In this document: in pieces, positions 29,861 to 51,068 of the stretch
Layout of the letters: the number at the start of each line of letters is the position of its first letter
Position numbering within the stretch: the first letter of the stretch is position 1
Source: an uncultured Pseudomonadota bacterium
GTDB lineage: Bacteria; Oederibacteriota; Muellerivitia; Muellerivitales; Muellerivitaceae
Assembly (NCBI GenBank): GCA_963770835.1
Contig: CAVYRH010000011.1
Coordinates: 64,001 to 128,000 of the forward strand
DNA: 64,000 nucleotides
Reading direction: 5' to 3'
The notes under the pieces: model-generated
Seen by the model: only the letters and a program-made list of their open reading frames with translations
What the model was told of the DNA's origin: nothing
The model's database searches: none
Position numbers and translations under genes: made by a program

Positions 29861-29884
29861 AGTTTTGAAAAGGGTAAAAGCCTT

Positions 29885-29910
29885 GTCCACGACGGGGACC
29901 CATCGTGGAC
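29885..29910 (+). repeat. Palindromic array site 1 (intron-occupied)
   Basis: GTCCACGACGGGGACCCATCGTGGAC. Confidence 0.9.
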
Positions 29911-30463
29911 ATCGTGCCAGAGGAGGGTTTGCAGAGCCAGCAGGTGAGGGAGTAGGCCGATGAGGGTCAACCCAAGTCCTGACCAGGTAATCACCAGAGA
30001 GCCTGGAAGTCAGCCCCCGGCGTAGGATCGAGAGGTCCTGCCCGAAACGGGGTCATAAACCTCATTTAGTGAGGGAACAATCCAGCAGTCCGCAACATCA
30101 AGTGAATCCTGCCGCTTCGTGAATGGGACACCGAAAGGTGCAAGGGGATGCCGAGCCGCGTGTCTACTGGCGAAGGCCACGATCCCGCTGAAGAATCTGG
30201 TAGCAAGCGGGGCAAGTCCTCCGGAGTATGGGGAACGGAATGTTGGAAAGGCTATGCAAGCAAGCTGGGAGATCCTACCCGCCAAAAGACTTGCCGCTAT
30301 AAGGCTAAAACCGAAAAGAGGCAAGGGTGGGAGGAAGTCGGAGGGGGTCACAGTACCGATGAAGGGGTGGACAACAAAACCACCCTGAGGGAAGGACCCC
30401 TGCTTCAACCATGTGTCTCAAAGAAGGTAGGCGCTGGAGCATGCCCCAAAAGGGCCAACAACT

Positions 30464-31986
30464 GATATGAATGAGCCAGTCAAGCCCGCTGGTTTTTCCT
30501 TTGGTTTTATCCTACTCTTTTCCACCTCAAGGCCCTGCGAAAAGCCCTGATCTCGAAAGCCCGGCTTGTTTCGACGATGAATCAAACTGATATTCGCGTG
30601 TTAGACCCATTGCTGGTTCCAGGGACGCAAGATTTTCATTCGTCGGGAGCTGCCTCGATCTCTGATCGTGGGTCGTCGCAGGCTTAGGCCTTTGCGCCAC
30701 AGAGTTGTACCGAGGGTTCTCCAAATCGTTGCCAAGCTTCCGGAAACAGGGTTCTTCCTTCATGACCTTGTTAAACCATTCCTGTTGTTTCCTGGGCGAT
30801 GGCCCACACAAATCCAGCCAACTCCCGGGCTACGGCCACCACTACTTTTTGGATGGGCTTGTTACGTTGGGTCATTTTTAGAAACTTTTTGTACAGACGA
30901 TCCTGTGCTCTGCGGGCGATCTTTAAAATCTCCACCGGACAACCCTCCCGCCTTTTTTCTAAAACCACGCCGACCGACTTCCCATGGCGGTAACTCCAAG
31001 CCGATTCCACAAGAATCCGTCTCAAATGGGCGTTCCCGGTCTTGGTGATTCCTCCCCGACGGATTTTTCCACCTGAACTGCTTTCACATATCCCCAAACC
31101 CGCGTAACCCATGAAATTACGAGCGCTCTCAAATCGCCTCAAATCTTGGCCTTCCACCGCCAAGGTCATGGCGCTCAAGGTATCAACCCCTTTCAGGCAC
31201 CTCAAATGCTTGACCAGTTTCCTGTAGGGTTCTTGGCTGGCCATCTCCTCCACTCGGCTCGTCAAACTCCTCAACCGCTCATCTGCCTCTTGCTTCCCGC
31301 GGACATATGCCTCGAAAGTCTCATGCAGTTCCAGAGGTTCGAACTTTTGGGTTTTCAGCCATGCCTCATGGGCTGATCTCCAATTCTTAGCTTCTCGAAA
31401 GATACGACCTTGCCGAAGAAAGAAATTCGACAACCGGTGCCGGGCCTTTTGCCGGTCTTCTAGGGCATCCTCACGAACTCGAACCAGATCCCGACAGGCT
31501 TCCTCTTGGATGGTCGGAACCCGCACTTCCGTCAGCTCTCCCGCCCTCCAAAGACGGGCCAACTTTTCCGCATCTCGGCGGTCTGTCTTCACCCGATCCC
31601 CGGCTTTCACTGGAATTTTCCCAGGGGCGATTACGACGCACTTCAACCCCTTTTGGGTTAATTGCCGGTGGATGTCATATCCACAAGGGCCCGCCTCGTA
31701 CACAAACGTTATTGACCCTCGTCCTTCGTACTTACCCAGCATTTTCCCCAATGCTTTTGGGGTGTTCTCGATTGTAAAAATATCCTTCACATTTTCGGCC
31801 CTAGCCGGCAGGACCGCACCTACCACCGTATCCTTATGGACATCCAACCCGACCACCGTGATATTATTTTCCATGAGCCAGCCCTCCGTATGCGGATAGG
31901 CTCCCTCAAGGAGCAACCCGCGAATTAGGGCCCTTCAACAAGGCCCGTTTTATTTTACGCAGGCCGCTGGCTCATTCATGTTATCT
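30464..31986 (-). mobile_element. IS110-family element, IS1111-type
   Basis: 13-bp subterminal inverted repeats ATGAATGAGCCAG / CTGGCTCATTCAT; CT core at both ends; ends defined by comparison with the uninterrupted intron copies. Confidence 0.9.
30771..31874 (-). CDS. IS110 transposase (DEDD RuvC-like)
   Basis: VGLDVHK; YEAGPCG; KTDRRDA; SSGG...GITKTGN..LR. Confidence 0.93.
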   Translation of the reverse strand: MENNITVVGLDVHKDTVVGAVLPARAENVKDIFTIENTPKALGKMLGKYEGRGSITFVYEAGPCGYDIHRQLTQKGLKCVVIAPGKIPVKAGDRVKTDRRDAEKLARLWRAGELTEVRVPTIQEEACRDLVRVREDALEDRQKARHRLSNFFLRQGRIFREAKNWRSAHEAWLKTQKFEPLELHETFEAYVRGKQEADERLRSLTSRVEEMASQEPYRKLVKHLRCLKGVDTLSAMTLAVEGQDLRRFESARNFMGYAGLGICESSSGGKIRRGGITKTGNAHLRRILVESAWSYRHGKSVGVVLEKRREGCPVEILKIARRAQDRLYKKFLKMTQRNKPIQKVVVAVARELAGFVWAIAQETTGMV

Positions 31987-32271
31987 CTGTAGTACCAAAG
32001 CGCGAGGCCTTTGACAACAGGCACTATGCCGAGCGGCCAAGGGGGAAGTCGAACCTGTAAAGCCGCCGGAGGAGAGGTTGTCGGAAAGCCGTATGATCGA
32101 AAAGGTCACGTACGGTTTGACGAGGGGGCGCTGGAAACGAAGTGATGAGGGAACCTCGTTGGGGCACGGAACCGGAAACGGGGAAACAGATCAAGGAACC
32201 CTCTGCACACCATCGCGCCAGTGCTCTACTCTGCAAGGAAAATTGAAAACGGTTAAGCGCAAAGGAAGGGC

Positions 32272-32859
32272 ATGACAGCAAAACGTAAAAATAGGAATCC
32301 TGCCCCCCAAGTGGGTGGAAGCCCTCTTCGCGGTGGTAACCCAAAATCTGTGCACCTTGACCGAAAGGCCATCTGTTCGATCGACCACGAATGCACGGGT
32401 TGCCCCACTGCCGCGAAAAGCTGCTGCGCCATGTTCGATGTCTGCGTGAGTGAAGCGGAATTAAACCGGATCATCCCGCTTTTGCCTGAAGCGGCCAAGC
32501 TCTGTCCGCATCTCAAAACCGAAAATGGATACGCCAATGTCTTTGAGGAGGCGGAGAAGGGCCAATTTTCCCTCGATACGCATGAAAACGGCCTCTGCGT
32601 CTTCGCGTTCAAGGCCAATGGATTGATCCGTTGTTCCTTGCACGCGGTCGAGGAGAACCTGGGACTGCCCAGGGGGACCGCAAAACCGGCGGTATGCATC
32701 CTTTGGCCGCTGACATTTTCCGAGAAAGGCGATCTCTTGACCCTCCATGATAAGGCGCTGTCCTGTGAGTGCAGTTCCGTCAGAAAGAAACCGTCGGACC
32801 GGATTTCCCCGGACTTACTGGAGACCATCCGGCATTTTGGTGTAGAGGCCTCAACCTAA
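32272..32859 (+). CDS. Cys-rich YkgJ/DUF3109-like protein
   Basis: CTGC...CC; CVF; CSLH; KPAVCILWP. Confidence 0.7.
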   Translation: MTAKRKNRNPAPQVGGSPLRGGNPKSVHLDRKAICSIDHECTGCPTAAKSCCAMFDVCVSEAELNRIIPLLPEAAKLCPHLKTENGYANVFEEAEKGQFSLDTHENGLCVFAFKANGLIRCSLHAVEENLGLPRGTAKPAVCILWPLTFSEKGDLLTLHDKALSCECSSVRKKPSDRISPDLLETIRHFGVEAST

Positions 32860-32869
32860 CTAAGAGGTT

Positions 32870-33002
32870 GTACACGAAGGGGAGTCCCAAGCCCCTGGCT
32901 TGGCGCAGTGGCTTTGGACAGGTTGAAATCCCATCTATATCGGACAGGGCCGTCTTTGGGGTTTCAACACCTGGAAATCCGCCCCTCAACCATTGATTGA
33001 AA
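32870..33002 (+). repeat. Palindromic array site 2 (expanded variant) plus conserved tail
   Basis: GTACACGAAGGGGA-CCAAGCCCCTGGCTTGG-TGGACAGGTTGAAATCCC...ATTGATTGA; tail matches 48944-49022. Confidence 0.8.
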
Positions 33003-33265
33003 ATGCGGCAGGAACTTTTAAAGGGTCCCCATGCCCCGCCCGCGCCCATAACCACCACATCGAAAATTTTCACGGGCCGCCTATTACCGGATTTACGAAA
33101 AACGTTTGCTTATTTCTTTGACCCGAAAAAAGCGTTAAAGCTCGAAACGCATATCGCGCGCCAATGGGCTCCACAGGAAAACGTGCCTACCTAATTTAAC
33201 TTTCCAAAGCTTCCAAAGCCGGCTGGCCCTTCCTTAAATGGAATCGAAGGACAAAGGAGGCGTCT

Positions 33266-33766
33266 ATGCTGACTCAAACCAAAAGCTGGTTGGTTTTGTT
33301 GTTGGTCTTAGGAGTGTTGTTGGTCCCGGTTTTTTCAAAAGCCGAACCGGTCTACAAGCCCACCTCCGACGGGGGAAACTTCGGGCTTGGCCTGGAACTG
33401 GGGGAACCCGGTTCCTGGGGCATTGACGGGAAGGTGTGGATCGACCGCGAGAACGCCTTTCAAGGCGCGGTCAAACTGCCGTCCGGTGCGGCTGTTTTGC
33501 AGCTGGATTATCTTTGGCACGACTTCAACCTCATCCACATGAAAAACACCGAGGGTGAATGGCCCTTTTATGTGGGTGTGGGCGGCGACTTGTCCCTTGA
33601 CAGCCCGGCGGCCCTGGGGGCCCGGGTGCCGGTGGGGATGTCGTACATCTTCGACAAGAGGAACGTGCCGGTGGATATCTACCTTCAACTGGTGCCGACC
33701 TTGTGGTTGACCGGTGACACAAGCTTCGACGTTTACGCGGAATTCGGCGCCCATTACTACTTTTAA
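33266..33766 (+). CDS. Hypothetical outer-membrane beta-barrel-like protein
   Basis: Signal peptide; C-terminal YYF. Confidence 0.65.
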   Translation: MLTQTKSWLVLLLVLGVLLVPVFSKAEPVYKPTSDGGNFGLGLELGEPGSWGIDGKVWIDRENAFQGAVKLPSGAAVLQLDYLWHDFNLIHMKNTEGEWPFYVGVGGDLSLDSPAALGARVPVGMSYIFDKRNVPVDIYLQLVPTLWLTGDTSFDVYAEFGAHYYF

Positions 33767-33789
33767 CAAGAAACGACAAGGAGGACGAA

Positions 33790-34074
33790 ATGAACGGGCA
33801 TGAATTGGTCTGGTACCTGATCGTCGGCCTTTTAACCGGCTGGATCTCCAGCCTCCTGGTCCAAGGGCGGGGCATGGGCATGGTCCGGGACACGGCCGTG
33901 GGCATTCTGGGGGCCCTTTTTGGGGGCTGGATGGCGAGGGAACTCGGCATTCCCATCGGCGGGTTTTTCAGCGCCTTGGCCATGGCCATCGTGGGATCGG
34001 TGCTTTTCCTGGTCGTCCTGAGGGCTTGGTTCTTTTCCCGGGGCCGGAAAGTCTGGGTGATCAAAACCAAGTAA
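33790..34074 (+). CDS. GlsB/YeaQ/YmgE family membrane protein
   Basis: LIVGLLTGW...GILGALFGG...AIVGSVLFL. Confidence 0.85.
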   Translation: MNGHELVWYLIVGLLTGWISSLLVQGRGMGMVRDTAVGILGALFGGWMARELGIPIGGFFSALAMAIVGSVLFLVVLRAWFFSRGRKVWVIKTK

Positions 34075-34120
34075 CAAAATCCATCTAGCCCCTTGAAAAG
34101 GGGTCGGGAAGGGGGTTGTT

Positions 34121-34662
34121 ATGATAATAAGACTTTTGATTCTTGGTTTGGTGTGGCTGGGGCTGGCGGCCCAGCCCGGTTTCGGCCAAAGCCTCGGCCT
34201 GGAGGCAGGGGCTAATTTCGCGAACCTGAACGGCAAGGACGTCAACAACGTCGTAGCCTCCCGTTTGGGTATCGTCGGGGGCGGATTCCTCTATTTGCCC
34301 TTAAGCCCAAGCTTGGCTTTCCAGCCGGAGGTCCTTTACGCCCAAAAGGGCGCGAAAACGGCCGACGGAACCACAACCTACCAGTTGGATTACGTGGAGA
34401 TCCCCGTGCTTTTGGAGATTTCCCTGGGCTTGCCGGTAGTCGCCCTGGAATCCTGTTGGGGCCGTCCTTTGACGCCAATGTGGCGTCCAGCGGCCTCTCC
34501 AACGTGGCCCCCGCGGATGTGGGGGTCATCGGGGGCGTTCAAGTCCATTTCGACCCCGTTCTTTTGAGCGGGCGCTACGAGCTGGGTTTGACCAACGTGA
34601 CATCGGACCGGAATTTACAAAACGGAACATTCACCTTCCTGGTGGGGCTGATGTTCCTTTAA
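34121..34662 (+). pseudogene. Porin-family beta-barrel gene with a frameshift near 34445
   Basis: FQPEVLYAQKG...LDYVEIPVL continues in another frame as GPSF...RYELGLTNV...GLMFL; could be a sequencing error. Confidence 0.65.
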
Positions 34663-34734
34663 AAACGACGAAGGGAACCGCCAAGGGCCTTTGTCCTTGG
34701 CGGTTCAAAAGGTTTATGGCTTTGGGGAGGGAAT

Positions 34735-35433
34735 ATGGAAACAACCTCCGGTACGGTTGCAACCGAGCCTTTTCGTTTCTACGAATGCATCCTCATGGTG
34801 AGGCCCTTGGGGATAAGGGCGTTGAACCTGCGCGAATTCCTCTTCGCCTTGAAAAGCGTGGATACGGAATGCATCCATCACCACTTCCACCAGGCCTCGC
34901 TGAAACACCAGTTCGACATCGCCGACTACCCCAGCGATTTCGCCCAATGGGCCGCCCTGCTGCTGGAGGACGCCGCGCTGGGTGAAAAACTCGGCAACCT
35001 GAATCCCTACCACTTCGAAAGCCTGGACTTGCTGAAGGAAAACCTGCTGGAAATCGTGGAGGACCACCTTTTCGATTCACCTTTCGTGCCCTCGGCCAAA
35101 CCGGGAATGGAATTCCACTTTTGCTCCGACACGACCCTGGTGGTGGACACGGGCCGGGAAGTGCGGACCTTGAGCCAGTTCCGGCAGTCTCTGGAACACG
35201 TGGACAACAGCTCCCTTTACTACCATTTCTACGAATCCCGGTTCCGGCTGCCGGGCACCCACTCGGACGATTTTTCGAATTTTTTCGAGAAGTCCCTGGG
35301 CTTGGCCGGCCTGGCCCAGGCCGTGAGGTCCATGGAGATTTATTTCACCCGGCTTAAGGAAGTGCGGGCCGGCCTGATGAACCTGGTGGACCAGGAGCTG
35401 GGACGCAGTCAATCGAAGGAGGGGATGCCATGA
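34735..35433 (+). CDS. DUF5752-like protein associated with TreT
   Basis: EPFRFY; SDFAQW; SSLYYHFYESR. Confidence 0.7.
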   Translation: METTSGTVATEPFRFYECILMVRPLGIRALNLREFLFALKSVDTECIHHHFHQASLKHQFDIADYPSDFAQWAALLLEDAALGEKLGNLNPYHFESLDLLKENLLEIVEDHLFDSPFVPSAKPGMEFHFCSDTTLVVDTGREVRTLSQFRQSLEHVDNSSLYYHFYESRFRLPGTHSDDFSNFFEKSLGLAGLAQAVRSMEIYFTRLKEVRAGLMNLVDQELGRSQSKEGMP

Positions 35434-36680
35434 CCACCGCCACGGCCGTGAGAACTCCGGCTCCCAGCCTGGCCGAATACGAAAGGGTCATCGGAAAGCA
35501 GCGCATCGACCTCCTGCAACGCCTGGCCGGCCGCTTGAAAGGCAAGACCCTGACCCACGTGAATTCCACCAAGGAAGGGGGAGGGGTGGCGGAAATCCTC
35601 AACCGGGCCGTGCCGCTCTTGAACGACTTGGGAATCGCCACCGACTGGCAGGTGATCGAGGGAAACCCGGATTTCTTCAAGGCCACCAAGGCCTTCCACA
35701 ACGGCCTCCAGGGCAACGAGGTGGCCTTGAGCCCCCGGATGCGGGAGGCCTACCTGGCGGTGAACGAAGAAAACGTGAAAAGGCTCCGGCTGGAAGCGGA
35801 CGTGGTTTTTATCCACGACCCCCAGCCGGCGGCCCTGATTCAACATGCCCGTAACCGGGGCAAATGGCTGTGGCGCTGCCATATCGACGCCAGCCGCCCC
35901 AACCGCGGCGTTTGGAAGTTCCTGCGGCAGTTCGTCGTCCGGTACGACGCCTCAGTGTTTTCCATGCCGGCCTTCGCCCAAAGCCTGCCGCACCCGCAGT
36001 ACATCGTCCATCCTTCCATCGACCCCTTGAGCGATAAAAACCGGGATTTAACGGAAGTGGAAATCCAGGTGGTCCTGGACCGGCTGGAGATTCCCCGGGA
36101 TAAGCCGATCATCCTGCAGGTCTCGCGGTTCGACCGGTTCAAGGACCCCCTGGGGGTGGTGAAGGCCTTCCAGATGGTGCGCCAAAGCCGCCCCTGCCGG
36201 CTGGTCCTGGCCGGCGGCGGCGCCAGCGACGACCCGGAGGGATTGGAGGTGCTGGCCGAGGTGAAAAGCGCGGCCGGCAACGACCCCGATATCCACATCC
36301 TGCTGCTTCCCTCGGACAGCCACCTGGAAATCAACGCCCTGCAAAGGGCGGCCAACGTGGTGGTGCAAAAGTCGCTCAAGGAGGGTTTTGGGCTGACCGT
36401 GACGGAAGCCCTGTGGAAAGGAAAGCCCGTGGTAGGGGGCGCCACGGGGGGAATCACCCTGCAGGTGCACAACTACCACACGGGCTTCCTGGTGCATTCA
36501 GCCGAGGGCGCGGCCTACCGCATCCGCTACCTGCTGAGCCGCCCGGAGGACGGGCTTCGGATGGGGAAAACGGCCCGCGAGTTCGTGCGGGACCACTTCC
36601 TGATCACCCGGCAGGTGCAGGATTACATGGCCTTAATGCTGATCCTGCTGTCGGGCGAAACGCGGGAGATTTTCATTTGA
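35430..36680 (+). CDS. treT: Trehalose synthase-like GT4 glycosyltransferase
   Basis: NSTKEGGGVAEIL; HDPQP; WRCHID; SRFDRFKDP; EGFGLTVTEALWK. Confidence 0.85.
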   Translation: MTTATAVRTPAPSLAEYERVIGKQRIDLLQRLAGRLKGKTLTHVNSTKEGGGVAEILNRAVPLLNDLGIATDWQVIEGNPDFFKATKAFHNGLQGNEVALSPRMREAYLAVNEENVKRLRLEADVVFIHDPQPAALIQHARNRGKWLWRCHIDASRPNRGVWKFLRQFVVRYDASVFSMPAFAQSLPHPQYIVHPSIDPLSDKNRDLTEVEIQVVLDRLEIPRDKPIILQVSRFDRFKDPLGVVKAFQMVRQSRPCRLVLAGGGASDDPEGLEVLAEVKSAAGNDPDIHILLLPSDSHLEINALQRAANVVVQKSLKEGFGLTVTEALWKGKPVVGGATGGITLQVHNYHTGFLVHSAEGAAYRIRYLLSRPEDGLRMGKTAREFVRDHFLITRQVQDYMALMLILLSGETREIFI

Positions 36681-38134
36681 AAACTCCGGTGCTGTCCAGG
36701 CCGGGGCTGGAGTTCCAGCCCCCCTCCATCGAAACCCGCCGACTCATCGTCGTCAGCAACCGGGAACCCTATGTCCTCAAGAAAACCGGCCGGACCTGGG
36801 CCTACCAAAGGACCATCGGCGGCTTGGTCTCGGCCCTGGACCTGGTGCTTCGCGTCACGAAGGGAACCTGGGTTTCCTGGGGCGGCGCCCAGGGCTATTC
36901 CTTTTCCGGCGGCGGGGAAGACCAGCGCGAGGCCGCGGGCAAACCGCCCTACCGGCTGGCCTCGGTCAACCTGTCGGAAAAACAGGTCGAGCATTTTTAC
37001 GAGGGCTTCTCCAACGGCCAGCTCTGGCCCCTGTTCCATTCCTTCCTGGAGCGCTGCCGTTTCAACGGGGAGGATTGGCCTTATTACAAGCTGGTCAACC
37101 AAAAGTTCGCCGTGGCGGCGGAAAAACTGGCCCGGGCAGGGGACCTTCTTTGGATCCAGGACTATCACTTGTGCCTGGCGCCAGGGATGATCCGCGCCAA
37201 AAGGCCCCGGCAGAAGATCGGCTTTTTCTGCCACATCCCCTTTCCTCCCCCGGAGGTTTTCCGGGCCCTGCCCCGGCGCAAGGAACTGCTCCAGGGGCTG
37301 CTGGGTTCCACCCTGATCGGCTTCCAGGGCCTCCGGGCCCGGAACAACTTCCTGGAGTGCGTGGCCGAAATCCTCCCGGAGGAGGCCCAGGTGCGTAACA
37401 ACACGGTTTTCCTGGGGGACCATGACTGCCGCGTGATAGCCTGCCCCATCGGCATTGACTTCGTTTTCTACAAGTCCCTGGCCGAATCCCGCGCCGCGGA
37501 GGAGAAGGCCCTGGCCTTGAAGAAAGAGGTCAACTGCCGCTTCATCGGCCTGGGCGTGGACCGGCAGGATTACACCAAGGGCATCCTGCAGAGGCTCCTG
37601 GCCATCGAGCGGCTTTTGGAGGACCATCCGGCCTACCGGAAAGAGCTGGTCTTCCTCCAAGTGATGGTTCCCAGCCGGGCCCATTTGCCCGAGTACAAGG
37701 CCCTGAAGGCGGAAATCGAGCTGGCCGTGGGCCGCATCAACGGCAAGTTCCAGGACCGGACCTGGAGCCCGATCCTTTATTACTACAAGGGATTCACGCC
37801 CAACGAGCTGGCGGCTTTTTACCGCCTGGCGGATTTCGCGCTCGTCACCCCCTTGAGGGACGGCATGAACCTGGTTTCCAAGGAATACGCGGCCTGCAGC
37901 GTGAAAAACGCGGGATCGCTCATCCTTTCCGAGTTCACCGGCGCCGCCGAACAACTGAAGGAGGCCTGGCTGGTCAATCCCTACGACATTGGGCAGGTGG
38001 CGGATACGATCCACCAAGTCCTGAACCTGCCCCGGGACGAAGTGGAGCGCCGCATGTCGAGCCTGCGCTACCGCATCCACCAGCAGGACATCCATTGGTG
38101 GGTGGAAACTTTCTTGAGGGAATTATTGGCCTAA
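36677..38134 (+). CDS. otsA: Trehalose-6-phosphate synthase
   Basis: VVSNREP; GGLVSAL; WIQDYHL; HIPFP; LRDGMNLVSKEY. Confidence 0.92.
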   Translation: MKTPVLSRPGLEFQPPSIETRRLIVVSNREPYVLKKTGRTWAYQRTIGGLVSALDLVLRVTKGTWVSWGGAQGYSFSGGGEDQREAAGKPPYRLASVNLSEKQVEHFYEGFSNGQLWPLFHSFLERCRFNGEDWPYYKLVNQKFAVAAEKLARAGDLLWIQDYHLCLAPGMIRAKRPRQKIGFFCHIPFPPPEVFRALPRRKELLQGLLGSTLIGFQGLRARNNFLECVAEILPEEAQVRNNTVFLGDHDCRVIACPIGIDFVFYKSLAESRAAEEKALALKKEVNCRFIGLGVDRQDYTKGILQRLLAIERLLEDHPAYRKELVFLQVMVPSRAHLPEYKALKAEIELAVGRINGKFQDRTWSPILYYYKGFTPNELAAFYRLADFALVTPLRDGMNLVSKEYAACSVKNAGSLILSEFTGAAEQLKEAWLVNPYDIGQVADTIHQVLNLPRDEVERRMSSLRYRIHQQDIHWWVETFLRELLA

Positions 38135-38370
38135 ACCGCGGGCGGAAAGCCGGGCCGCCGCCAATTTTGACTGGACGGAAAATTGAAAGGGTGAACATCC
38201 CCTTGAGGGTTTTTTATTTCGCCAATTTCTTCGAACCTCCCCTTGTACCACCCCCAACGACCCGCCTATTGTTGATCTTAAGGGAAGAAAAAATAACGTT
38301 GTCCGGGTGACCCCGGTTCCTTTGGGGAGGGAAGGGGACCGCGGCTCGCCGGGAGAGGAAGGGAAAAGCC

Positions 38371-39147: not shown

Positions 39148-39152
39148 AGGGT

Positions 39153-39314
39153 ATGGAACAGGGCGAATCCTGCCAATGCCACGAATGCGGTCTTCACTAC
39201 CAAGACCCGGAAACCGCGAAAAAATGCGAAGAGTGGTGCAAAGCCAACCATAGCTGCAACCTGGAGATTACCAAGTTGTCGATTGAGCGGACCCTCAAGC
39301 GGAAACCGTCTTAA
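39153..39314 (+). CDS. Small Cys/His-rich protein
   Basis: CHECGLHY...AKKCEEWC...SCNLEI. Confidence 0.6.
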   Translation: MEQGESCQCHECGLHYQDPETAKKCEEWCKANHSCNLEITKLSIERTLKRKPS

Positions 39315-39318
39315 GGGT

Positions 39319-39543
39319 GTCCGCGGCGGGGAGCACCAAGCCCCCGGCTTGGTGCGGTGGCATTGGACAAGTTGAAATCCCATTCCCGCGCCGGCAATGA
39401 TGGTGTCCAAGCCTTTCAAGGGCAAATCTTAGCTATCCCCAATCGCCCTCCTTGGTTATAAAATACCGCAAGTTTTCGGGGTTCCCTGTGAGCTGTTGAC
39501 CGTCAACTGTGAACCGGTGTTAAAGGCTCCGCGCCTTCCCGGT
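39319..39543 (+). repeat. Palindromic array site 3 (expanded variant) plus duplicate of the recN upstream region
   Basis: GTCCGCGGCGGGGA...TTGGACAAGTTGAAATCCC; GGCAAATCTTAGCTATCCC...CCGGTGTTAAAGGCTCCGC matches 51838-51949. Confidence 0.85.
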
Positions 39544-39664
39544 TTATGGAACGGTTTCTTTTCTCCATTTATTCCGGCAACAGCGATGGTGCGGTGCATA
39601 CATAAATAATAGGGTTACCGCGATTTTACGGATTCTTTTGTGTGATTCAAGAAAGGGAGGGGTC

Positions 39665-40924: not shown

Positions 40925-41049
40925 CGAAACCCCATGGCGCGCCGGTGATGGCCACGTCGAAGTATTTCGGTACGCTTTGCTTAATCAAGGCAAGCCCGGA
41001 TTGGGCGAAGAAACAGTAAATATTCGGCTGTCAAATGAGGGAGGCGCGA

Positions 41050-41370
41050 ATGTTTGAAAATCTGGATAAGTTTTTAAATAAGTTGTCGGATACGGATTGG
41101 GTATGGTGGCCGGTTTTGCGTTGGCGCCCCGCCCCCAAAAGTAATTTCACCACTTTGTTGGTTCTCAAAATACTGGCCAGCGCCGTGCCGGTGGGAGCCG
41201 TTGGATTGGCTTTGTTGGTCCTAATGGTGGAAAAACAACCGGAATGGTTGTCTTATTGGCTTGGCCTATCGGTGGCTTCTTTGTCCTTTTTTTTGGTTCT
41301 CGAATTTATGTTTGCTCCGGCATGGAACCGGCGAGCCGAAAAACTTCGTAAAGAAAAACGCCGGAAATGA
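41050..41370 (+). CDS. Small membrane protein, paralog of 58439
   Basis: DTDWVWWPVLRWRPA...WNRRA. Confidence 0.65.
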   Translation: MFENLDKFLNKLSDTDWVWWPVLRWRPAPKSNFTTLLVLKILASAVPVGAVGLALLVLMVEKQPEWLSYWLGLSVASLSFFLVLEFMFAPAWNRRAEKLRKEKRRK

Positions 41371-41383
41371 CTTGGGGAGCTTT

Positions 41384-41473
41384 GTCCACGACCTGTCTCC
41401 AGACCTATCCCCCGGAACTTTAGTGTAGGGGGAAGCTCGATGAGCGTAGGGAGTACGGGGACCCAGAGTGGAC
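41384..41473 (+). repeat. Palindromic array site 4 containing a REP-like insert
   Basis: GTCCACGAC-[insert]-ACGGGGACCCAGAGTGGAC. Confidence 0.75.
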
Positions 41474-41548
41474 GATAATTATTTGAACGTAGATATAAGA
41501 ATGGGATCGGGATTGGATCAGGGAAACCAATTAGAAATCGGGAACCGA

Positions 41549-41773
41549 ATGGATATAAGACTGGTGCTCGCAGGACTTGCAATAATACTAATGATACTTA
41601 TTCATTTATTCTTTATTGGCTTCGTACGAGGAGCAAACGCATTAGAATTTCCTCTTTTTACCAAAAAAGATAATCCAAATATGTTTTGGTTCTTTGTTTG
41701 TCTGATTTTTATTTTGCTTTCGGTTTTGATTATTTTATGTTGGAAGTCTATTTCCGTCATTCCGGCTCATTGA
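41549..41773 (+). CDS. Small two-TM hypothetical protein
   Basis: KKDNPNMFW between hydrophobic segments. Confidence 0.55.
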   Translation: MDIRLVLAGLAIILMILIHLFFIGFVRGANALEFPLFTKKDNPNMFWFFVCLIFILLSVLIILCWKSISVIPAH

Positions 41774-41786
41774 TAATTTTCCGGTT

Positions 41787-41812
41787 GTCCGCGAAGGGGA
41801 CCCGGATTGGAC
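41787..41812 (+). repeat. Palindromic array site 5 (empty, degenerate)
   Basis: GTCCGCGAAGGGGACCCGGATTGGAC. Confidence 0.75.
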
Positions 41813-41858
41813 AGGAAACACAACGCGGTTTTGAGATGTATTCAAGAAAAGGAAAATT

Positions 41859-42527
41859 ATGAGTGCCCTGGAAAGGGATGACCCGAGCCTGGGCCGCATC
41901 AGTGCCTTCAGTGACGGGGTGTTCGCCTTTGCCATCACTTTATTGGTCCTGGCGATCCGCATCCCGCATCCAACCGATGCCGACGCCGCCCAGGGACTGC
42001 TGGCTCTTTTGGCCCAACAGTGGAGGACTTACATCGTCTACGCCATGAGCTTCATGAACATCGGAATCAACTGGACGAACCACCGGATGATGTTCTCGAC
42101 CTTCAAACGCGCCGACCATACCCTCGTTTGGCTCAACCTCCTGTACCTGATGGTAGGGGTCGCCTTCATGCCCGTCCCGACGGCGGTCCTAGGCGCGTGG
42201 CTGGGGGACCCCCACAACCAGGTCGTTGCCACCGTGTTCTACGGAGCTTCCGCTACCCTCGGAGGGGTTGTCTATAATCTGGTTTGGTGGTACGGGGCCT
42301 ACGTCGCCAAGCTAACCTCCCCGGCTCTTACCGCGAGCAAACGGCACGCCCATACTGCGGCTTGGGCTCCGGCCCCGCTTTTCGCCGCCACGCTTTCGGC
42401 TGTTGCCTTCGCGAATCCCGGCCTGGCGGTGGCTGGCTATGTGATCGTCATTTTCGCTTACGTATTGCCACTTCCGGGGTTGTTGGCGATGGTGCGGCGG
42501 CGTAGCTCTCGAGGGAGAAAAGGATAA
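41859..42527 (+). CDS. TMEM175 family potassium channel
   Basis: RISAFSDGVFAFAITLLVL signature; W.NH. Confidence 0.9.
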   Translation: MSALERDDPSLGRISAFSDGVFAFAITLLVLAIRIPHPTDADAAQGLLALLAQQWRTYIVYAMSFMNIGINWTNHRMMFSTFKRADHTLVWLNLLYLMVGVAFMPVPTAVLGAWLGDPHNQVVATVFYGASATLGGVVYNLVWWYGAYVAKLTSPALTASKRHAHTAAWAPAPLFAATLSAVAFANPGLAVAGYVIVIFAYVLPLPGLLAMVRRRSSRGRKG

Positions 42528-42556
42528 AAAAATAGGTTCAATCATCACAGAACTTT

Positions 42557-42582
42557 GTCCATGAAGGGGACCCATCGTGGAC
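42557..42582 (+). repeat. Palindromic array site 6 (empty)
   Basis: GTCCATGAAGGGGACCCATCGTGGAC. Confidence 0.85.
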
Positions 42583-42644
42583 AGGTATGGGTCATCAGAA
42601 AATGAAACATTGATGTCTAACAAATAGGAGCAAGTGTTAACTAA

Positions 42645-43382
42645 ATGAGAATCTCATTGGAATTGGTTCCCCGAAGCAAAGAATCTATTTTGGAAGAAGT
42701 GGATAAGATTTCCAATAATCTTAAAAAGGTCAATACGATAAACATTCCGGATTTATTGAGATTTGATTTAAGAAGCTGGGTGGCATGCGGATATGTGAAA
42801 CCCTATTTTCAAAACGCGATACCTCATTTTAGGTCGGTTGATATTAACCTGGACGAACCCTTGCCAATGGCCGTTTTTCTAAAAGAGAACCATTTTAAAG
42901 AAATCATTGTGATCAGCGGCGACATTCCCCAGGACATGTCCCGGAAAATGTACCCATCCGATGTGCTGGAAGTCATTAAAAAATTCAAACGGGAAATTCC
43001 TGGAATTAAGATTTACGCCGCCTTTGATCCTTACCGGCAAGGGATTCACAAAGAGCTCGAATATGCCCACGCCAAACGCGATGCCGGCGCCGATGGTTTT
43101 TTCACGCAACCTTTTTTCGATATTCGTCTCTTTGACATTTATTCTGAATTACTTAAATCTTATGAAGTCTTTTGGGGAGTTTCTCCAGTTTTAAGCATAA
43201 GCTCAAAAAATTATTGGGAGACTAGAAACAAAGTTGTATTTCCCGGGAATTTTAGCCCAACACTAGAGTGGAACCGGGAATTAGCTGAGACTGTTTTAAG
43301 CCGGATCACTTCCGTAAATGGAAACGCGTACTTCATGCCCATTAAAGCCTCGATCTTGGATTGTTATAGTGGGATTCTTTAA
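42645..43382 (+). CDS. Methylenetetrahydrofolate reductase-like flavoprotein
   Basis: ISLELVP; INIPD; SGD.P; K.DAGADGFFTQPFFD. Confidence 0.75.
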   Translation: MRISLELVPRSKESILEEVDKISNNLKKVNTINIPDLLRFDLRSWVACGYVKPYFQNAIPHFRSVDINLDEPLPMAVFLKENHFKEIIVISGDIPQDMSRKMYPSDVLEVIKKFKREIPGIKIYAAFDPYRQGIHKELEYAHAKRDAGADGFFTQPFFDIRLFDIYSELLKSYEVFWGVSPVLSISSKNYWETRNKVVFPGNFSPTLEWNRELAETVLSRITSVNGNAYFMPIKASILDCYSGIL

Positions 43383-43397
43383 AAAAATGATTCACCT

Positions 43398-43423
43398 GTC
43401 CACGGCGGGGACCCGTCGTGGAC
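43398..43423 (+). repeat. Palindromic array site 7 (intron-occupied)
   Basis: GTCCACGGCGGGGACCCGTCGTGGAC. Confidence 0.9.
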
Positions 43424-45405
43424 ATCGTGCCAGGAACAAGGGTGTAGAAGCCAGCAGGTGAGGCTTGATATAAGCCGAGTCCTGACGGGGTAACCGCCTG
43501 AGGGCCCCGAAGTCAGCCTCCGTGGCAAGGTCGAGAGGCCTTGCCCGAAACGAGGTCATAAACCTTCGATTAGGAAGGGAACAATCTTACAGTCCGCAAC
43601 ATCAAGTGAATCCTGCCGCGTCGTGAAGAGTCCGCCGAAAGGCGTAAGAGGAGGCCGAGCCTCGTGTCCACGGGCGAAGGCAACAATCTCACCCTCAATA
43701 CAGGATGGGGTGGGGCGAATCCTCCGGCGTATAGGGAACGGAATGTGGGAAAGGCTGCTACATCAACCTGGGAGATCCTACCCGCCAAAAGACTTGCCGC
43801 TATAAGGCTAAAACCGAAAAGTGGTAAGGGTGGGAGGAAGTCGGAGGGGGCAGTAGTACCGATGAAGGGAAGACAACAAAACTTCCCGGAGGGAAGGGCC
43901 CCTGCTTCAACCAAGCAACCAAAAGAAGTGGAGCATGGAGAATGCCTGAAAAGGCTAACAACTCAGAAGACCAAGTGCGCCAATTCCAGAGGGAGCTATA
44001 TCGAGCGGCCAAGAGGAGCCCGAACCGACGCTTTCATGCGTTATACGACAAGCTCACCCGGTGGGACGTGCTTGTGGAGTCATGGAATCAGGTAAGGGCA
44101 AACCAAGGGCATGGTGGGGTGGATGGAAAGAGTTTGGAGGATATAGAGAAAGAGGGTGTAGGACTCTTTCTCCGGCAAATCCGGGAAGAACTCAGAGCGG
44201 GGACGTATCGGCCACAACCGGTCAAGCGGGTAGAAATACCGAAACCGGATGGCGGAAAGCGGCCACTTGGAATACCGGTTATTCGGGATCGTGTGGTACA
44301 AGCCGCCTGTCGTAAGATGGTCGAACCTATTTTTGAGGCAGATTTCCTGGAAGGTTCCTATGGCTTTCGGCCCAAGCGTTCAGCACATCAAGCTCACGAG
44401 GAAATCCTGAAATGGATAGATCGTGGGTGCAGATTTGTGGTGGATGGAGATATTCGAAAATATTTCGACTCCATTGACCATGCCAAGCTGATGGTGCTGA
44501 TGTGTCAAAGGATCAGTGACAAGAAGATTTTGGAACTCATCCAAAGGTGGCTCGAAGCGGGGGTATTGGCGGAAGGTAGGCTTATGCCCACCTCCGAAGG
44601 TACTCCTCAAGGTGGGGTGATTTCCCCATTACTTTCCAATATTTTCCTTCACCTGTTAGACAAGGTCTGGAACAAAAGATACAAGCAACTTGGAAAACTG
44701 GTGCGTTACGCTGACGATTTTGTGGTGTTATGTCCAACACAACAAAAGGCGGAAGAAAGTCTGAAGGTGCTCAAGAGATTACTTGGGCGGTTGGGGTTGG
44801 AAATGCACCCAGAAAAGACGAGGCTGGTGGAAATGGGACCAGGAAAGGATGGTTTTGATTTCCTTGGTTTCCATTACAGGATATGCCGACCCAATAAGAA
44901 GAGGGGAAAAGCATACATCAAAAGCTGGCCCAAGCGTAAATCCATGGAGAAGATCACTGAGAGGATAAAAGCGGTGACTTCGGAGAAATGGCGGCTGTCG
45001 CTTTCAATGGAAGAATTGGTAAAAACTCTGAATCCGATTTTGAGGGGTTGGGCCAATTATTTCAAAGTGGGGACAAGCTGGAAACAGTTTGATAAGGTGG
45101 ATTTATTTACATACCGAAGGCTATTGTTATTCCGAAGGCGAAAGCATCGTCAGAGGATAATGAATTGGTCGGGGGTCGAAGATGAATTCAAAAGGTTAGG
45201 CCTGTATCGGCTATCTAGACGTGCCATTGTTGCTTGAATGCCGCCGAAATAAAGGTTGTCGGAAAGCCGTATGATCGAAAAGGTCACGTACGGTTTGATG
45301 AGGGGGCACTGGAAACGTGGTTATGAGAGCCGGACTGAGGCCCAATTCGAAAGGGTTGGATTAGCCACCGTACTCTAATGCATACGCGCCAGTGCTCTAC
45401 TCTGC
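43424..45405 (+). mobile_element. RT-encoding group II intron
   Basis: Ribozyme domains around an RT ORF; domain V at ~45263-45296; domain VI ends CTCTACTCTGC. Confidence 0.93.
43942..45237 (+). CDS. ltrA: Group II intron reverse transcriptase/maturase without an endonuclease domain
   Basis: RPLGIP..RDRVVQ; GTPQGGVISPLLSN; YADD; FDFLGF; LRGWANYF; no HNH domain. Confidence 0.95.
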   Translation: MPEKANNSEDQVRQFQRELYRAAKRSPNRRFHALYDKLTRWDVLVESWNQVRANQGHGGVDGKSLEDIEKEGVGLFLRQIREELRAGTYRPQPVKRVEIPKPDGGKRPLGIPVIRDRVVQAACRKMVEPIFEADFLEGSYGFRPKRSAHQAHEEILKWIDRGCRFVVDGDIRKYFDSIDHAKLMVLMCQRISDKKILELIQRWLEAGVLAEGRLMPTSEGTPQGGVISPLLSNIFLHLLDKVWNKRYKQLGKLVRYADDFVVLCPTQQKAEESLKVLKRLLGRLGLEMHPEKTRLVEMGPGKDGFDFLGFHYRICRPNKKRGKAYIKSWPKRKSMEKITERIKAVTSEKWRLSLSMEELVKTLNPILRGWANYFKVGTSWKQFDKVDLFTYRRLLLFRRRKHRQRIMNWSGVEDEFKRLGLYRLSRRAIVA

Positions 45406-45462
45406 AAAGAAATAGGTAAAAGACGCACCACCCTTGAAGTGTTTAATTAAAGGCAACTCAAT

Positions 45463-45852
45463 ATGATCCTAAAATTCCGAACACCTCTTTTGATCACTTT
45501 TGCAATTATCACTGGTTACTTCTGGACCGTTCCAAATATTTTTTTCATGATTTTTAGCAATTTGCTACCGGTCCTGATTATTGCCTTTGGGGTAGTTCTT
45601 CTTTTTCGCGATATGTCCTGGAACCGACAAGCATTGCTCGTGGTTTTCTTTCTCGTCCTGGCTGAGTTCGCCAGAGATACCTTCGTTTGCCTTTTTACCA
45701 ATGGGTGGGCTCAAATGATAGCTAATGGGAATTGGAAGACTTATATCAGAATGTTTGGGGTTCAGGTTGTTGTTGGCCTTGTCGCATGGGGAACAGTGAA
45801 ATTGTTCTTAAAAGTCATTGAACACAAACGGTTTAAACCTAGTAGGCGATAA
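45463..45852 (+). CDS. Hypothetical membrane protein
   Basis: Four hydrophobic segments. Confidence 0.6.
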   Translation: MILKFRTPLLITFAIITGYFWTVPNIFFMIFSNLLPVLIIAFGVVLLFRDMSWNRQALLVVFFLVLAEFARDTFVCLFTNGWAQMIANGNWKTYIRMFGVQVVVGLVAWGTVKLFLKVIEHKRFKPSRR

Positions 45853-45897
45853 AACGGCTTTGATTTTTTCAAAGATTTAATCCGGTCGAAAAACCTT

Positions 45898-45923
45898 GTC
45901 CACGATGGGGACCCGTCGTGGAC
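45898..45923 (+). repeat. Palindromic array site 8 (intron-occupied)
   Basis: GTCCACGATGGGGACCCGTCGTGGAC. Confidence 0.9.
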
Positions 45924-46724
45924 ATCGTGCCAGAGGAGGGTTTGCAGAGCCAGCAGGTGAGGGAGTAGGCCGATGAGGGTCAACCCAAGTCCTGACCAGG
46001 TAATCACCAGAGAGCCTGGAAGTCAGCCCCCGGCGTAGGATCGAGAGGTCCTGCCCGAAACGGGGTCATAAACCTCATTTAGTGAGGGAACAATCCAGCA
46101 GTCCGCAACATCAAGTGAATCCTGCCGCTTCGTGAATGGGACACCGAAAGGTGCAAGGGGATGCCGAGCCGCGTGTCTACTGGCGAAGGCCACGATCCCG
46201 CTGAAGAATCTGGTAGCAAGCGGGGCAAGTCCTCCGGAGTATGGGGAACGGAATGTTGGAAAGGCTATGCAAGCAAGCTGGGAGATCCTACCCGCCAAAA
46301 GACTTGCCGCTATAAGGCTAAAACCGAAAAGAGGCAAGGGTGGGAGGAAGTCGGAGGGGGTCACAGTACCGATGAAGGGGTGGACAACAAAACCACCCTG
46401 AGGGAAGGACCCCTGCTTCAACCATGTGTCTCAAAGAAGGTAGGCGCTGGAGCATGCCCCAAAAGGGCCAACAACTCTGTAGTACCAAAGCGCGAGGCCT
46501 TTGACAACAGGCACTATGCCGAGCGGCCAAGGGGGAAGTCGAACCTGTAAAGCCGCCGGAGGAGAGGTTGTCGGAAAGCCGTATGATCGAAAAGGTCACG
46601 TACGGTTTGACGAGGGGGCGCTGGAAACGAAGTGATGAGGGAACCTCGTTGGGGCACGGAACCGGAAACGGGGAAACAGATCAAGGAACCCTCTGCACAC
46701 CATCGCGCCAGTGCTCTACTCTGC
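45924..46724 (+). mobile_element. ORF-less group II intron, copy 2 (801 nt)
   Basis: Ribozyme domains retained, RT ORF deleted. Confidence 0.92.
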
Positions 46725-46728
46725 ATAA

Positions 46729-46755
46729 ATATGTACGGAATATTACCGTACATAT
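46729..46755. promoter_or_regulatory. Putative operator of the DUF1778-GNAT TA pair
   Basis: Inverted repeat ATATGTACGG-7 nt-CCGTACATAT upstream of the antitoxin. Confidence 0.65.
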
Positions 46756-46782
46756 GATATATTTAATGCGGAGGTAATAGCC

Positions 46783-47064
46783 ATGACGAAAGCTCTAAAA
46801 ACTAAGGAAGAACGCATCGAACTGAGGGTAAGGCCCCAGGATAAGCGGTTATTGGAAAAAGCCGCCCAGGCCCAGGGTTTGAGCCTGAGTTCCTATCTCG
46901 TGACGCGGTCCCTCCATGCGGCCCAGGAAGACGCGATCCCGGTTAAAACCTATGTTCCGCCTAAACGGGACCTGGACTTATTCCTAAGGCTTCTGGAAAA
47001 CCCTCCCGAGCCTAACGAAAAGCTTAAAGCGGCGGCACGGCGTTACCAAAAAGAGATATCCTAA
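46783..47064 (+). CDS. DUF1778 ribbon-helix-helix antitoxin
   Basis: ERIELRV...LEKAA...SLSSY; LENPPEPNEKL. Confidence 0.88.
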   Translation: MTKALKTKEERIELRVRPQDKRLLEKAAQAQGLSLSSYLVTRSLHAAQEDAIPVKTYVPPKRDLDLFLRLLENPPEPNEKLKAAARRYQKEIS

Positions 47065-47073
47065 TCTGCCGTT

Positions 47074-47589
47074 ATGACAGGCCAAAAATGGAAGTTTGTC
47101 CCTATCACGGAAAAACCGAATCTCGAAGCTTTTGACTGTGGCATTTCTGAACTCAATGATTATCTGAAAAAATACGCAGGCCAGAACCACCGCAAGGGGT
47201 TAGGAAGCACTTATGTCCTCATTCCCGTCGAAGGAGAACCCATCGCGGCTGGTTATCACACCTTGAGCATGGCTCAGGTGGAATTGCGTTCGTTGCCAGA
47301 ACCCCAACGTAAAAACCTCCCGAAGTATCCAATTCCCGCCGTTCGATTGGGACGCCTTGCCGTTGACTGCCAATGGCAAGGAACCGGATTGGGGGAGATG
47401 TTGCTGATGGATGCTATTCACCGGTCTGTTGCCGCCGTCCAATCGGTGGCCGCGAAGTATATGATCGTCGATGCCAAAAACAAAAAAGCTGAGGAATTTT
47501 ATTTACGTTACGGGTTTCAACCCTTTGAGGGCGGTTCACACTCATTAGTAGCGGCCATCGATACGTTAAAGGGACTTTTCACGAAATGA
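47074..47589 (+). CDS. GNAT acetyltransferase toxin (AtaT/TacT-like)
   Basis: FDCGI.ELNDYL; PIPAVRLGRLAVD...QGTGLG; VDAKN..A..FY..YGF. Confidence 0.9.
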   Translation: MTGQKWKFVPITEKPNLEAFDCGISELNDYLKKYAGQNHRKGLGSTYVLIPVEGEPIAAGYHTLSMAQVELRSLPEPQRKNLPKYPIPAVRLGRLAVDCQWQGTGLGEMLLMDAIHRSVAAVQSVAAKYMIVDAKNKKAEEFYLRYGFQPFEGGSHSLVAAIDTLKGLFTK

Positions 47590-47606
47590 AACGAGTGGTT
47601 AAGGCT

Positions 47607-47632
47607 GTCCACGACGGGGACCCGTCGTGGAC
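47607..47632 (+). repeat. Palindromic array site 9 (intron-occupied)
   Basis: GTCCACGACGGGGACCCGTCGTGGAC (perfect stem). Confidence 0.9.
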
Positions 47633-48433
47633 ATCGTGCCAGAGGAGGGTTTGCAGAGCCAGCAGGTGAGGGAGTAGGCCGATGAGGGTCAACCCAAGTC
47701 CTGACCAGGTAATCACCAGAGAGCCTGGAAGTCAGCCCCCGGCGTAGGATCGAGAGGTCCTGCCCGAAACGGGGTCATAAACCTCATTTAGTGAGGGAAC
47801 AATCCAGCAGTCCGCAACATCAAGTGAATCCTGCCGCTTCGTGAATGGGACACCGAAAGGTGCAAGGGGATGCCGAGCCGCGTGTCTACTGGCGAAGGCC
47901 ACGATCCCGCTGAAGAATCTGGTAGCAAGCGGGGCAAGTCCTCCGGAGTATGGGGAACGGAATGTTGGAAAGGCTATGCAAGCAAGCTGGGAGATCCTAC
48001 CCGCCAAAAGACTTGCCGCTATAAGGCTAAAACCGAAAAGAGGCAAGGGTGGGAGGAAGTCGGAGGGGGTCACAGTACCGATGAAGGGGTGGACAACAAA
48101 ACCACCCTGAGGGAAGGACCCCTGCTTCAACCATGTGTCTCAAAGAAGGTAGGCGCTGGAGCATGCCCCAAAAGGGCCAACAACTCTGTAGTACCAAAGC
48201 GCGAGGCCTTTGACAACAGGCACTATGCCGAGCGGCCAAGGGGGAAGTCGAACCTGTAAAGCCGCCGGAGGAGAGGTTGTCGGAAAGCCGTATGATCGAA
48301 AAGGTCACGTACGGTTTGACGAGGGGGCGCTGGAAACGAAGTGATGAGGGAACCTCGTTGGGGCACGGAACCGGAAACGGGGAAACAGATCAAGGAACCC
48401 TCTGCACACCATCGCGCCAGTGCTCTACTCTGC
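47633..48433 (+). mobile_element. ORF-less group II intron, copy 3 (801 nt)
   Basis: Appears identical to copy 2. Confidence 0.92.
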
Positions 48434-48895: not shown

Positions 48896-48917
48896 GCAAA
48901 TCGACGGATTTGATATT

Positions 48918-49120
48918 GTCCACGACGGGGAACCATTGTGGATAGGTTGAAATCCCTTTAATACCTGGCAGGGCCGTCCTTTGGGTTCCAACACCGCCAA
49001 ATTCTCCCAATCTATTGATTGAATAGACGCTCTTAGCCCGGCAAATCTTAGCTATCCCCAATCGCCCGGCTTGGCTATAAAATACCGCAAGTTTTCGGGT
49101 TTTCCTGTCAGCTGTTAACT
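48918..49120 (+). repeat. Palindromic array site 10 plus full tail and duplicate of the recN upstream region
   Basis: GTCCACGACGGGGAACCATTGTGGAT-AGGTTGAAATCCC...ATTGATTGAATA...GGCAAATCTTAGCTATCCC...TATAAAATACCGCAAGTTTTCGGGT. Confidence 0.88.
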
Positions 49121-51051: not shown

Positions 51052-51068
51052 AGGACGTGAAATGGTTT

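Follow-up and report, generated by a model that had tools for sequence, protein, structure and literature searches.

A group II intron lineage that probably targets the palindromic recombination site of a cassette array

What draws four group II introns to the same short palindrome within a single stretch of bacterial DNA, and what is the palindrome for? The window, i.e. the whole 64,000-nt stretch analysed here (C11:64001-128000 in genome G000, where C denotes a contig of that genome), contains four group II introns, all on the + strand and each behind a 28-bp palindrome, as located by Rfam at domain I and at domains V-VI (models RF02003 and RF00029, four matches each). Comparison across copies makes it highly probable that they belong to an endonuclease-less (En-less), IIB-type lineage which uses RNA-DNA pairing to retrohome to a 28-bp recombination site, at the outer edge of its right arm. 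An earlier sequence-only reading had proposed an independent lineage specialised on this site, and that proposal has held up: the reverse transcriptase (RT) tree separates the lineage from class C and its exon-binding sites (EBS1 to EBS3) co-vary with the target. The introns, some of them without an open reading frame (ORF), and their parts are as follows.

29912..32234, + strand: intron copy 1, an 800-nt ORF-less intron of subfamily A2 with a 1523-nt IS110-family element in domain IV; outside the insert identical to the other ORF-less copies (minis); Rfam match
30464..31986, - strand: IS110-family element in copy 1, with transposase ORF 30771-31916 and a repeated CT core
43425..45405, + strand: RT-encoding group II intron, subfamily A1, 1981 nt, UCGUG...CUCUGC
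43628..43633, + strand: EBS2 of the RT intron (GAGUCC), pairing at 5 of 6 bases with target positions -11 to -16, which span the asymmetric centre
43665..43671, + strand: EBS1 of the RT intron (UGUCCAC) in an Id3-type hairpin, pairing at 7 of 7 bases with GTGGACA
43732, + strand: predicted EBS3 (U) of the RT intron, pairing with the first 3' exon base (A); the C3:39444 copy has C here and its 3' exon begins with G
43942..45237, + strand: RT/maturase, intact, 431 aa, YADD motif, without endonuclease domain
45264..45296, + strand: domain V, AGC triad at 45265-45267, GAAAA pentaloop
45300..45405, + strand: domain VI, bulged branch A at 45399 (-7)
45925..46724, + strand: 800-nt ORF-less A2 intron (copy 3), with EBS2 46136-46140, EBS1 46174-46180 and EBS3 46242
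47634..48433, + strand: 800-nt ORF-less intron (copy 4), identical to 45925-46724

Choice of target and pairing with it

Fifty-two matches to the intron family were found and 30 loci, 24 of them from relatives, were analysed (a contig scan using a single RT as query gave 1 locus only). Within the genome that holds the window there are 20 copies, of which 16 lie at the right arm of the palindrome, 4 of these in sites split by another intron. Since only 36 of the 1208 genomic words reading T[GA]GACA followed across the cut by A lie at a right arm, this concentration is not due to chance. The intron family is present in 7 of 30 other genomes of the bacterial family. Flanks in relatives were scored on 20 distinct 5' ends (24 relative loci together with L009); 19 of these adjoin the palindrome, 17 of them in the cassette sense and the remaining 2 on the opposite strand. 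Counted by copies, 19 of 22 in relatives are at the palindrome. The common orientation noted previously therefore holds for all 16 palindrome insertions in the genome but for 17 of 19 in relatives (33 of 35 together), and is a rule rather than a law; 15 of the 20 genome copies lie on the G-rich strand. Because identical minis follow differing site variants, the palindrome is not part of the element, and the concern that it might travel with the intron was not borne out, two copies lying at look-alikes without a left arm. The sites in the window are listed below.

29884..29911, + strand: 28-bp palindrome (13-GA-13), filled by intron copy 1
32869..32920, + strand: empty long-centre variant, right arm TTGGACA
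39318..39369, + strand: empty long-centre variant, right arm TTGGACA
41383..41474, + strand: empty palindrome with a ~60-bp insert after position 10 (41393-41456), right arm GTGGACG
41786..41813, + strand: empty 28-bp palindrome, TTGGACA then G
42556..42583, + strand: empty 28-bp palindrome, GTGGACA kept, G next (disfavoured at intron-binding site 3, IBS3)
43397..43424, + strand: 28-bp palindrome filled by the RT intron
45897..45924, + strand: 28-bp palindrome filled by mini copy 3
47606..47633, + strand: 28-bp palindrome filled by mini copy 4
48917..48944, + strand: empty 28-bp palindrome, right arm GTGGATA
51068..51077, + strand: left arm of another site, with a short insert like that at 41383 following from 51078

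In the window, the statement that empty sites mostly differ at the GTGGAC hexamer is correct (4 of the 6 with a right arm, with 41383 and 42556 keeping it), but it fails at the level of the genome, where 75 of 85 strict sites are empty and 44 of these 75 keep GTGGACA. As many as 36 empty sites appear fully permissive, indicating that the target is unsaturated. No empty alleles of filled sites were found in the same genome.

Pairing of EBS1 with the target was assessed by comparing 26 distinct hairpins from the window's intron family and metagenome relatives of ~45-53% RT identity, a set from which 18 candidates with an ambiguous 5' end were left out, in which one retained row is probably no intron, and whose kin are not independent. 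At a fixed hairpin position EBS1 pairs with the last six exon bases (IBS1) at 5.12 of 6, compared with 1.04-3.08 for shifted registers and a maximum of 4.23 in 5000 shuffles. When 13 rows are aligned, 99.5% of the EBS1-IBS1 helix and its stem is paired and six two-sided changes are seen, a result matched by 0 of 500 shuffles. The TGTCCAC at 43665-43671 and TGTCTAC at 46174-46180 reported previously are both present. EBS2 tracks the target, as ACACC with GGTGT (L027), AAGGG with CCCTT (L031) and GUGUC with GACAC in the retargeted C19 sister, while in 17 copies a U at EBS3 faces an A in the exon and in one copy a C faces a G, a single compensatory case. The base next to the site is A at 17 of the 18 filled sites, compared with 45 of the 75 empty ones (Fisher p 0.005). 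As judged by this comparison, the intron RNA pairs with its target through EBS1 (seven bases, GTGGACA), EBS2 (the inner arm and centre) and EBS3 (the first base past the cut).

Two side observations concern targeting elsewhere. The sister RT introns L001 and L006 (C19:427462 and C2:234144), at 80% protein identity, have been retargeted to a repeat ending ATATGACA, with EBS1 and EBS2 changed to match. In a distant clade of the same radiation (L041-L095, e.g. L047, L053, L054, L065, L070 and L074), insertion is directly after ATG or GTG; an apparent reading frame lies behind the terminal ...CTACCAATG of the 3' region, which looks as though the intron restored the start codon.

A different basis for recognition, in which the intron binds a folded DNA hairpin in the manner of IIC and IIC-attC introns and EBS pairing is secondary, is very improbable. 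The palindrome does fold strongly (z -4.25), and an intact palindrome directly precedes most copies. However, the whole of IBS1 would lie inside the stem, two copies sit where there is no left arm, and four now stand behind sites whose arms are 1.9 kb apart through the presence of a second intron family; EBS2 is present and co-varies, and the window RT is not of class C.

The minis share 92% identity in domain I with the RT introns at C2, C3 and C26 and only 79% with the window's own A1 RT intron, and by this measure the ORF-less copies in the window derive from the sister subfamily A2, not from the RT intron beside them. All three A2 RT genes are broken by IS110, the intact RTs being that of the window and two sister copies; all 6 genome copies of the window's IS110 element share one domain IV position at about codon 7 of the A2 RT, a position also seen in runs X1 and X2. 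Independently, three other genomes hold 773-783 nt ORF-less derivatives of A1 (L013, L014, L018). Identical intron copies at many sites imply recent mobility, as read from the sequences. In the probable course of events, the 14 near-identical ORF-less copies would receive their protein in trans from a copy with an RT, reverse splice into single-stranded DNA at the replication fork and be primed from it, a route for En-minus introns that the cited portion of PMC4424553 describes. The palindrome would serve as a safe, numerous and intergenic landing pad, and the intron, once joined to the downstream cassette, could ride with it.

Intron boundary and ends

The cut lies after GTGGACA, i.e. after position 28, and the palindrome therefore remains whole upon insertion. 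This is one base later than the boundary first proposed, after GTGGAC, of which the four same-orientation introns stand but the position does not. The earlier boundary, which implies a 3-nt 5' extension, is ruled out by four observations. First, an intron-less DNA allele of the cassette behind copy 3 (one contig in one DNA run, 28 letters on the short side, 90% likeness) joins 45924 to 46725, omitting exactly 800 nt, TC..GC. Second, in a GH43 gene interrupted by a mini (L005, C4:389639), the GH43 and GH43_C2 domains share one frame only if the A stays exonic, and the alternative frame matches no family. Third, the EBS1 register in the 26 hairpins agrees with a cut after GTGGACA. Fourth, at L032 a target ending GTGGACG still precedes TCGTG. 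The L005 mini sits at a 13-base look-alike of the right arm, where splicing would be required for function of the GH43 gene.

With this boundary the introns start UCGUG or GCGUG, in the normal GUGYG register. The standard termini GUGYG...AY are not what was found: among the 18 genome copies with both ends, 14 read UCGUG...GC and 4 read GCGUG...AC, and the ends are coupled, with a T start going with a GC end in 14 of 14 and a G start with an AC end in 4 of 4, as also seen in relatives. The U1/G(-2) ends occur in both subfamilies. The first and penultimate bases have thus changed together, from G...A to U...G, which reads as a re-paired junction since these two bases are thought to interact, a contact that the part of PMC4238363 cited here describes as non-Watson-Crick. 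The coupling recurs in the distant L064 (T/GT) and L080 (C/GC), and is not universal: four distant relatives that begin with T share the 3' end of their kin that begin with G.

Several observations weigh against a mobile lineage confined to the palindrome. Four genome copies lie elsewhere (the 2 at look-alikes and 2 sisters at the other repeat), as do two distant copies in genome G004, at a third target (L017, L024). The strand bias is only partly explained by pairing, as 46 of 85 sites offer IBS1 and IBS3 on the bottom strand. The isolated EBS1 hairpin, for which a folding check had been suggested, folds no better than shuffles (z -0.69 and -0.38), and thermodynamic folding of this hairpin and of the whole mini was uninformative, so the EBS1 assignment rests on comparison, where the pairing and covariation do support it. 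The intron-less allele comes from one run and has only 28 letters on its short side. In two RNA runs, contigs cover the RT intron and no splice joint was found; neither mobility nor splicing was observed. As a side observation, L017 lies ~1 kb from a tyrosine integrase match.

The palindrome as a probable cassette recombination site

The palindrome is present in 26 of 30 genomes of the family, and once in a sister family; the remaining 67 genomes of the phylum and the viral contigs gave 0 matches. Sites occur in same-strand runs around one or few genes, and cassettes are common to several arrays and genomes (the 18 relative regions examined for sharing were picked because they have sites). The site has the architecture 13-GA-13, with symmetry reaching 13 bp about a 2-bp asymmetric centre. 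Among 156 distinct sites, left-arm variants stay with the upstream DNA in three pairs, and right-arm variants go with the downstream DNA in most pairs, the exceptions being cross-genome pairs and one pair flanked by an insertion sequence. This linkage of arm variants places the crossover between positions 11 and 19, and in one pair before 16.

A classical integron was rejected, as no IntI (TIGR02249) exceeded the cut-off in any of 31 genomes. Tyrosine integrases were considered as partners of the arrays and showed no consistent neighbourhood in 31 regions; they are kept only as a rival. Six paralogous tyrosine integrases of ~370 aa (C5:233290, C5:241383, C10:70275, C1:7319, C2:210367 and C26:882152 in the window's genome) were noted, and no fixed relation to the arrays was found.

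A 275-aa serine recombinase (L163:1471-2298, the same as C17:12078-12905) has its 3' end ~15 nt from a palindrome and is the only PF00239 gene of its genome; an ArdC gene lies upstream of it on the other strand. It heads a clade of 19 clusters, 275-283 aa long, which comprise a catalytic and a recombinase domain with the invariant catalytic motif present and are without the zinc ribbon (PF13408). Two features of large serine recombinases are accordingly missing, namely the zinc ribbon and coiled coil, and distinct attP and attB sites, there being one site type. Of the copies whose 3' end is available (10, in 7 genomes), all 10 adjoin a site and do so in the same orientation, as opposed to 0 of 6 full-length relatives; read by eye, six of the ten adjoining sites have a degenerate right arm and one is split by the second intron family. 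The orientation of the short recombinase is convergent relative to the cassettes and differs from that of a cassette gene. In the large serine recombinase LI integrase, the recombinase domain contacts 13 bp and deletion of the zinc ribbon impairs binding, according to the portion of PMC3783163 cited. The cassettes are most likely moved by the short serine recombinase, with its catalytic and recombinase domains alone, and not by the intron. Counting against this, a search of 31 family genomes found the enzyme in only 7, and several assemblies in which it was not found have 10-37 sites.

The same distribution (palindrome in 26 of 30 genomes, short recombinase in 7 of 31) would suit another possibility, that intron targeting is as described above but the palindrome is a dif/pdif-like site of a host tyrosine recombinase and the serine recombinase merely another cassette. 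The 28 bp can also be read as 11-6-11, and a Xer-like gene is present. This possibility is considered doubtful, though the most plausible of the alternatives: symmetry extends to 13 bp with a 2-bp centre, the short recombinase is convergent with the cassettes and adjoins a site wherever its 3' end is available, and the palindromes are in direct repeat, whereas pdif sites alternate in orientation.

A role for the introns themselves in building or reshuffling the array, as raised in the sequence-only reading and as proposed for IIC-attC introns, in which recombination between copies, splicing and reverse transcription make cassettes, is unlikely. The 14 near-identical minis are substrates for homologous recombination, a second intron family inserts within the crossover interval, and many assemblies that have arrays lack the short recombinase. 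Against these points, the crossover is central and not at the insertion point: right-arm variants travel with the downstream gene, so the junctions are not between positions 28 and 29. Only 7 genomes carry the intron compared with 26 carrying the palindrome, the assemblies G023, G041 and G018 (89-90% complete) have 15-34 sites and neither intron family was found in them, 75 of 85 sites are empty, and it is the serine recombinase that adjoins the site.

The introns of the window are not alone in their use of the palindrome. A second intron family, g2 (1941 nt), inserts between positions 11 and 12 in 10 of 12 genome copies and at five relative loci, thereby splitting the site, and its loop CGUCGUG matches CACGACG. 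Its g2 membership follows from the FADD motif of its RT and a clade shared with B.th.I3; an assignment to class E was rejected on the tree and this motif. Four sites carry both intron families. There is also a second IS110-family element, of which 5 copies have the relevant end; in 4 of these it directly follows the GGACA of the palindrome, and both strands are used. In addition, the ~60-bp inserts after position 10 have 6 related matches in the genome, and are possibly a miniature inverted-repeat element (MITE) on the same site. The copies, with one cassette of the window, are as follows.

C2:195392, C3:2516, C3:106850, C4:580639, C4:778189, C11:806, C16:41292, C20:3237, C23:5645 and C24:23091 in G000 (L004, L185): g2 intron
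L158:397-1473, and C3:45300, C3:81893, C3:103118 and C8:165071 in G000: second IS110-family element
46783..47589, + strand: cassette behind copy 3, TacA-like antitoxin and GNAT toxin pair (Pfam PF08681, PF13673)

Cargo between the sites (33266-38134, 46783-47589, 50524-51051) includes trehalose synthesis genes (TreT-like, GT20) and toxin-antitoxin pairs of TacA-GNAT and ParE type. Where the array region starts, the leuA 3' end occurs three times (27051-27098, 27223-27270, 28102-28149) with a nucleotidyltransferase ORF between, which resembles repeated integration, and the upstream sequence of a RecN-like gene occurs three times in the window (39387-39513, 49006-49132, 51804-51930) and twice in C15, partly behind long-centre palindromes.

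The most far-reaching reading, at a probability of roughly 0.6, is that a naturally truncated serine recombinase runs an integron-like system not described before, with the palindrome as its site. The age and abundance of this site would have allowed two or more unrelated lineages of group II introns, as well as an IS110-family element, to specialise on it separately, in parallel with attC and IIC-attC introns but with different components, the lineage of the window leaving the site intact, riding cassettes and carrying re-paired U1/G(-2) ends. In the literature searched, from which most subscription journals were outside coverage, no description was found of introns at serine recombinase sites or of serine-recombinase cassette arrays. 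The site-specialised intron variant is regarded as real, new and well supported, with most of the upside in the cassette system that it marks. It would represent a second, independent case of group II introns settled on cassette recombination sites, here by ordinary RNA-DNA pairing, and nature has supplied compensatory changes in all three exon-binding sites and at the two intron ends, where the U1/G(-2) pair puts the interaction of the first and penultimate bases to a natural test. At 800 nt, the ORF-less copy, which is apparently still spreading, makes a compact unit in which mobilisation in trans can be tested. Beyond themselves, the introns draw attention to a larger object, the family-wide cassette arrays that lack IntI and have a minimal serine recombinase, and if active, the short enzyme would be a small recombinase for a 28-bp site and a new route of cassette shuffling.

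Class of the intron and comparison with known systems

The elements are recognisable as group II introns from the domain V triad, the bulged A of domain VI, the domain I elements and the YADD RT/maturase in domain IV, the last matching TIGR04416 at 428 bits (cut-off 300). In a quick maximum-likelihood tree of 52 RTs (without Pe.th.I2, So.us.I2 and Ge.ur.I1 of basal class F, and without g4), the window RT groups with its sisters as a starred clade inside the En-less g1-g3/unclassified radiation, at an open fork outside the g2+g3 clade. Class labels follow PMC3552965 (Table S2) and PMC8919778 (Table 3), those of class C being deduced from context and triad. The phylogenetic check proposed earlier thus sets the window RT apart from class C, including two introns in integron-type contexts, and from D, E and B/ML. 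The nearest labelled proteins are the unclassified Rh.sp.I1 (44%) and the g3 Ni.ha.I1 (40%). The AGC triad is as first reported, against CGC in three class C references. Further class C traits are lacking, i.e. its RT clade, absence of EBS2 and an EBS1 of 3-4 bp, as is the class C-attC habit of inserting in the attC bottom strand opposite to the cassettes. Exon recognition is of IIB type, with EBS3-IBS3 rather than delta pairing to the 3' exon. The 5-nt domain V loop and an RT-X protein without En are features of class F sensu lato, the loop being also a class E feature (PMC3753933, in the part cited). From these characters the window introns are classed as an endonuclease-less, IIB-type, non-class-C lineage.

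Among En-less introns, those of class F, g1-g4 and unclassified position (Toro and Martinez-Abarca 2013, PMC3552965; Nagy 2013, PMC3753933) share RT-X only, a 431-aa protein, a length of ~1980 nt, the 5-nt domain V loop and EBS1 with EBS2; the window lineage differs in its own starred clade, its U1/G(-2) ends and its fixation on one repeat. The trans-mobilised ORF-less introns of Thermosynechococcus elongatus likewise comprise many ORF-less copies and few RT donors, on the cited part of PMC8643678, whereas in the window lineage the copies aim at one recombination site and the closest RT copies are interrupted by IS110. The IIB introns in integrons and in CALINs (clusters of attC sites lacking integron integrases), as far as the cited part of PMC7923331 (Sonbol and Siam 2021) describes them, are also non-C introns beside cassette sites, one of them in the cassette sense. 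However, they are isolated or fragmentary CL1/E copies with no EBS covariation shown there, in contrast to the multi-copy, multi-genome window lineage in which EBS1-3 co-vary.

At the level of the array, integrons and the Acinetobacter dif modules likewise have single-gene cassettes between repeated sites, toxin-antitoxin cassettes, and sharing among arrays and genomes. Compared with integrons, the arrays here are without IntI, have a fixed 28-bp 13-GA-13 site and carry a candidate truncated large serine recombinase at the array tail. The closest parallel to the introns is with IIC-attC introns of the S.ma.I2 type, which also live at the recombination sites of cassette arrays and lack an endonuclease domain. 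These recognise 3-4 bp and a DNA hairpin, whereas the window introns have the AGC triad, the pentaloop, a 7-bp EBS1 and an EBS2; they insert opposite to the cassette sense (PMC7923331, in the part cited), whereas the window lineage lies mostly in the cassette sense; and their target is attC, whereas the target here is not attC and no IntI accompanies it. The likeness to IIC-attC introns is ecological, in that both occupy the same kind of niche, and not mechanistic.

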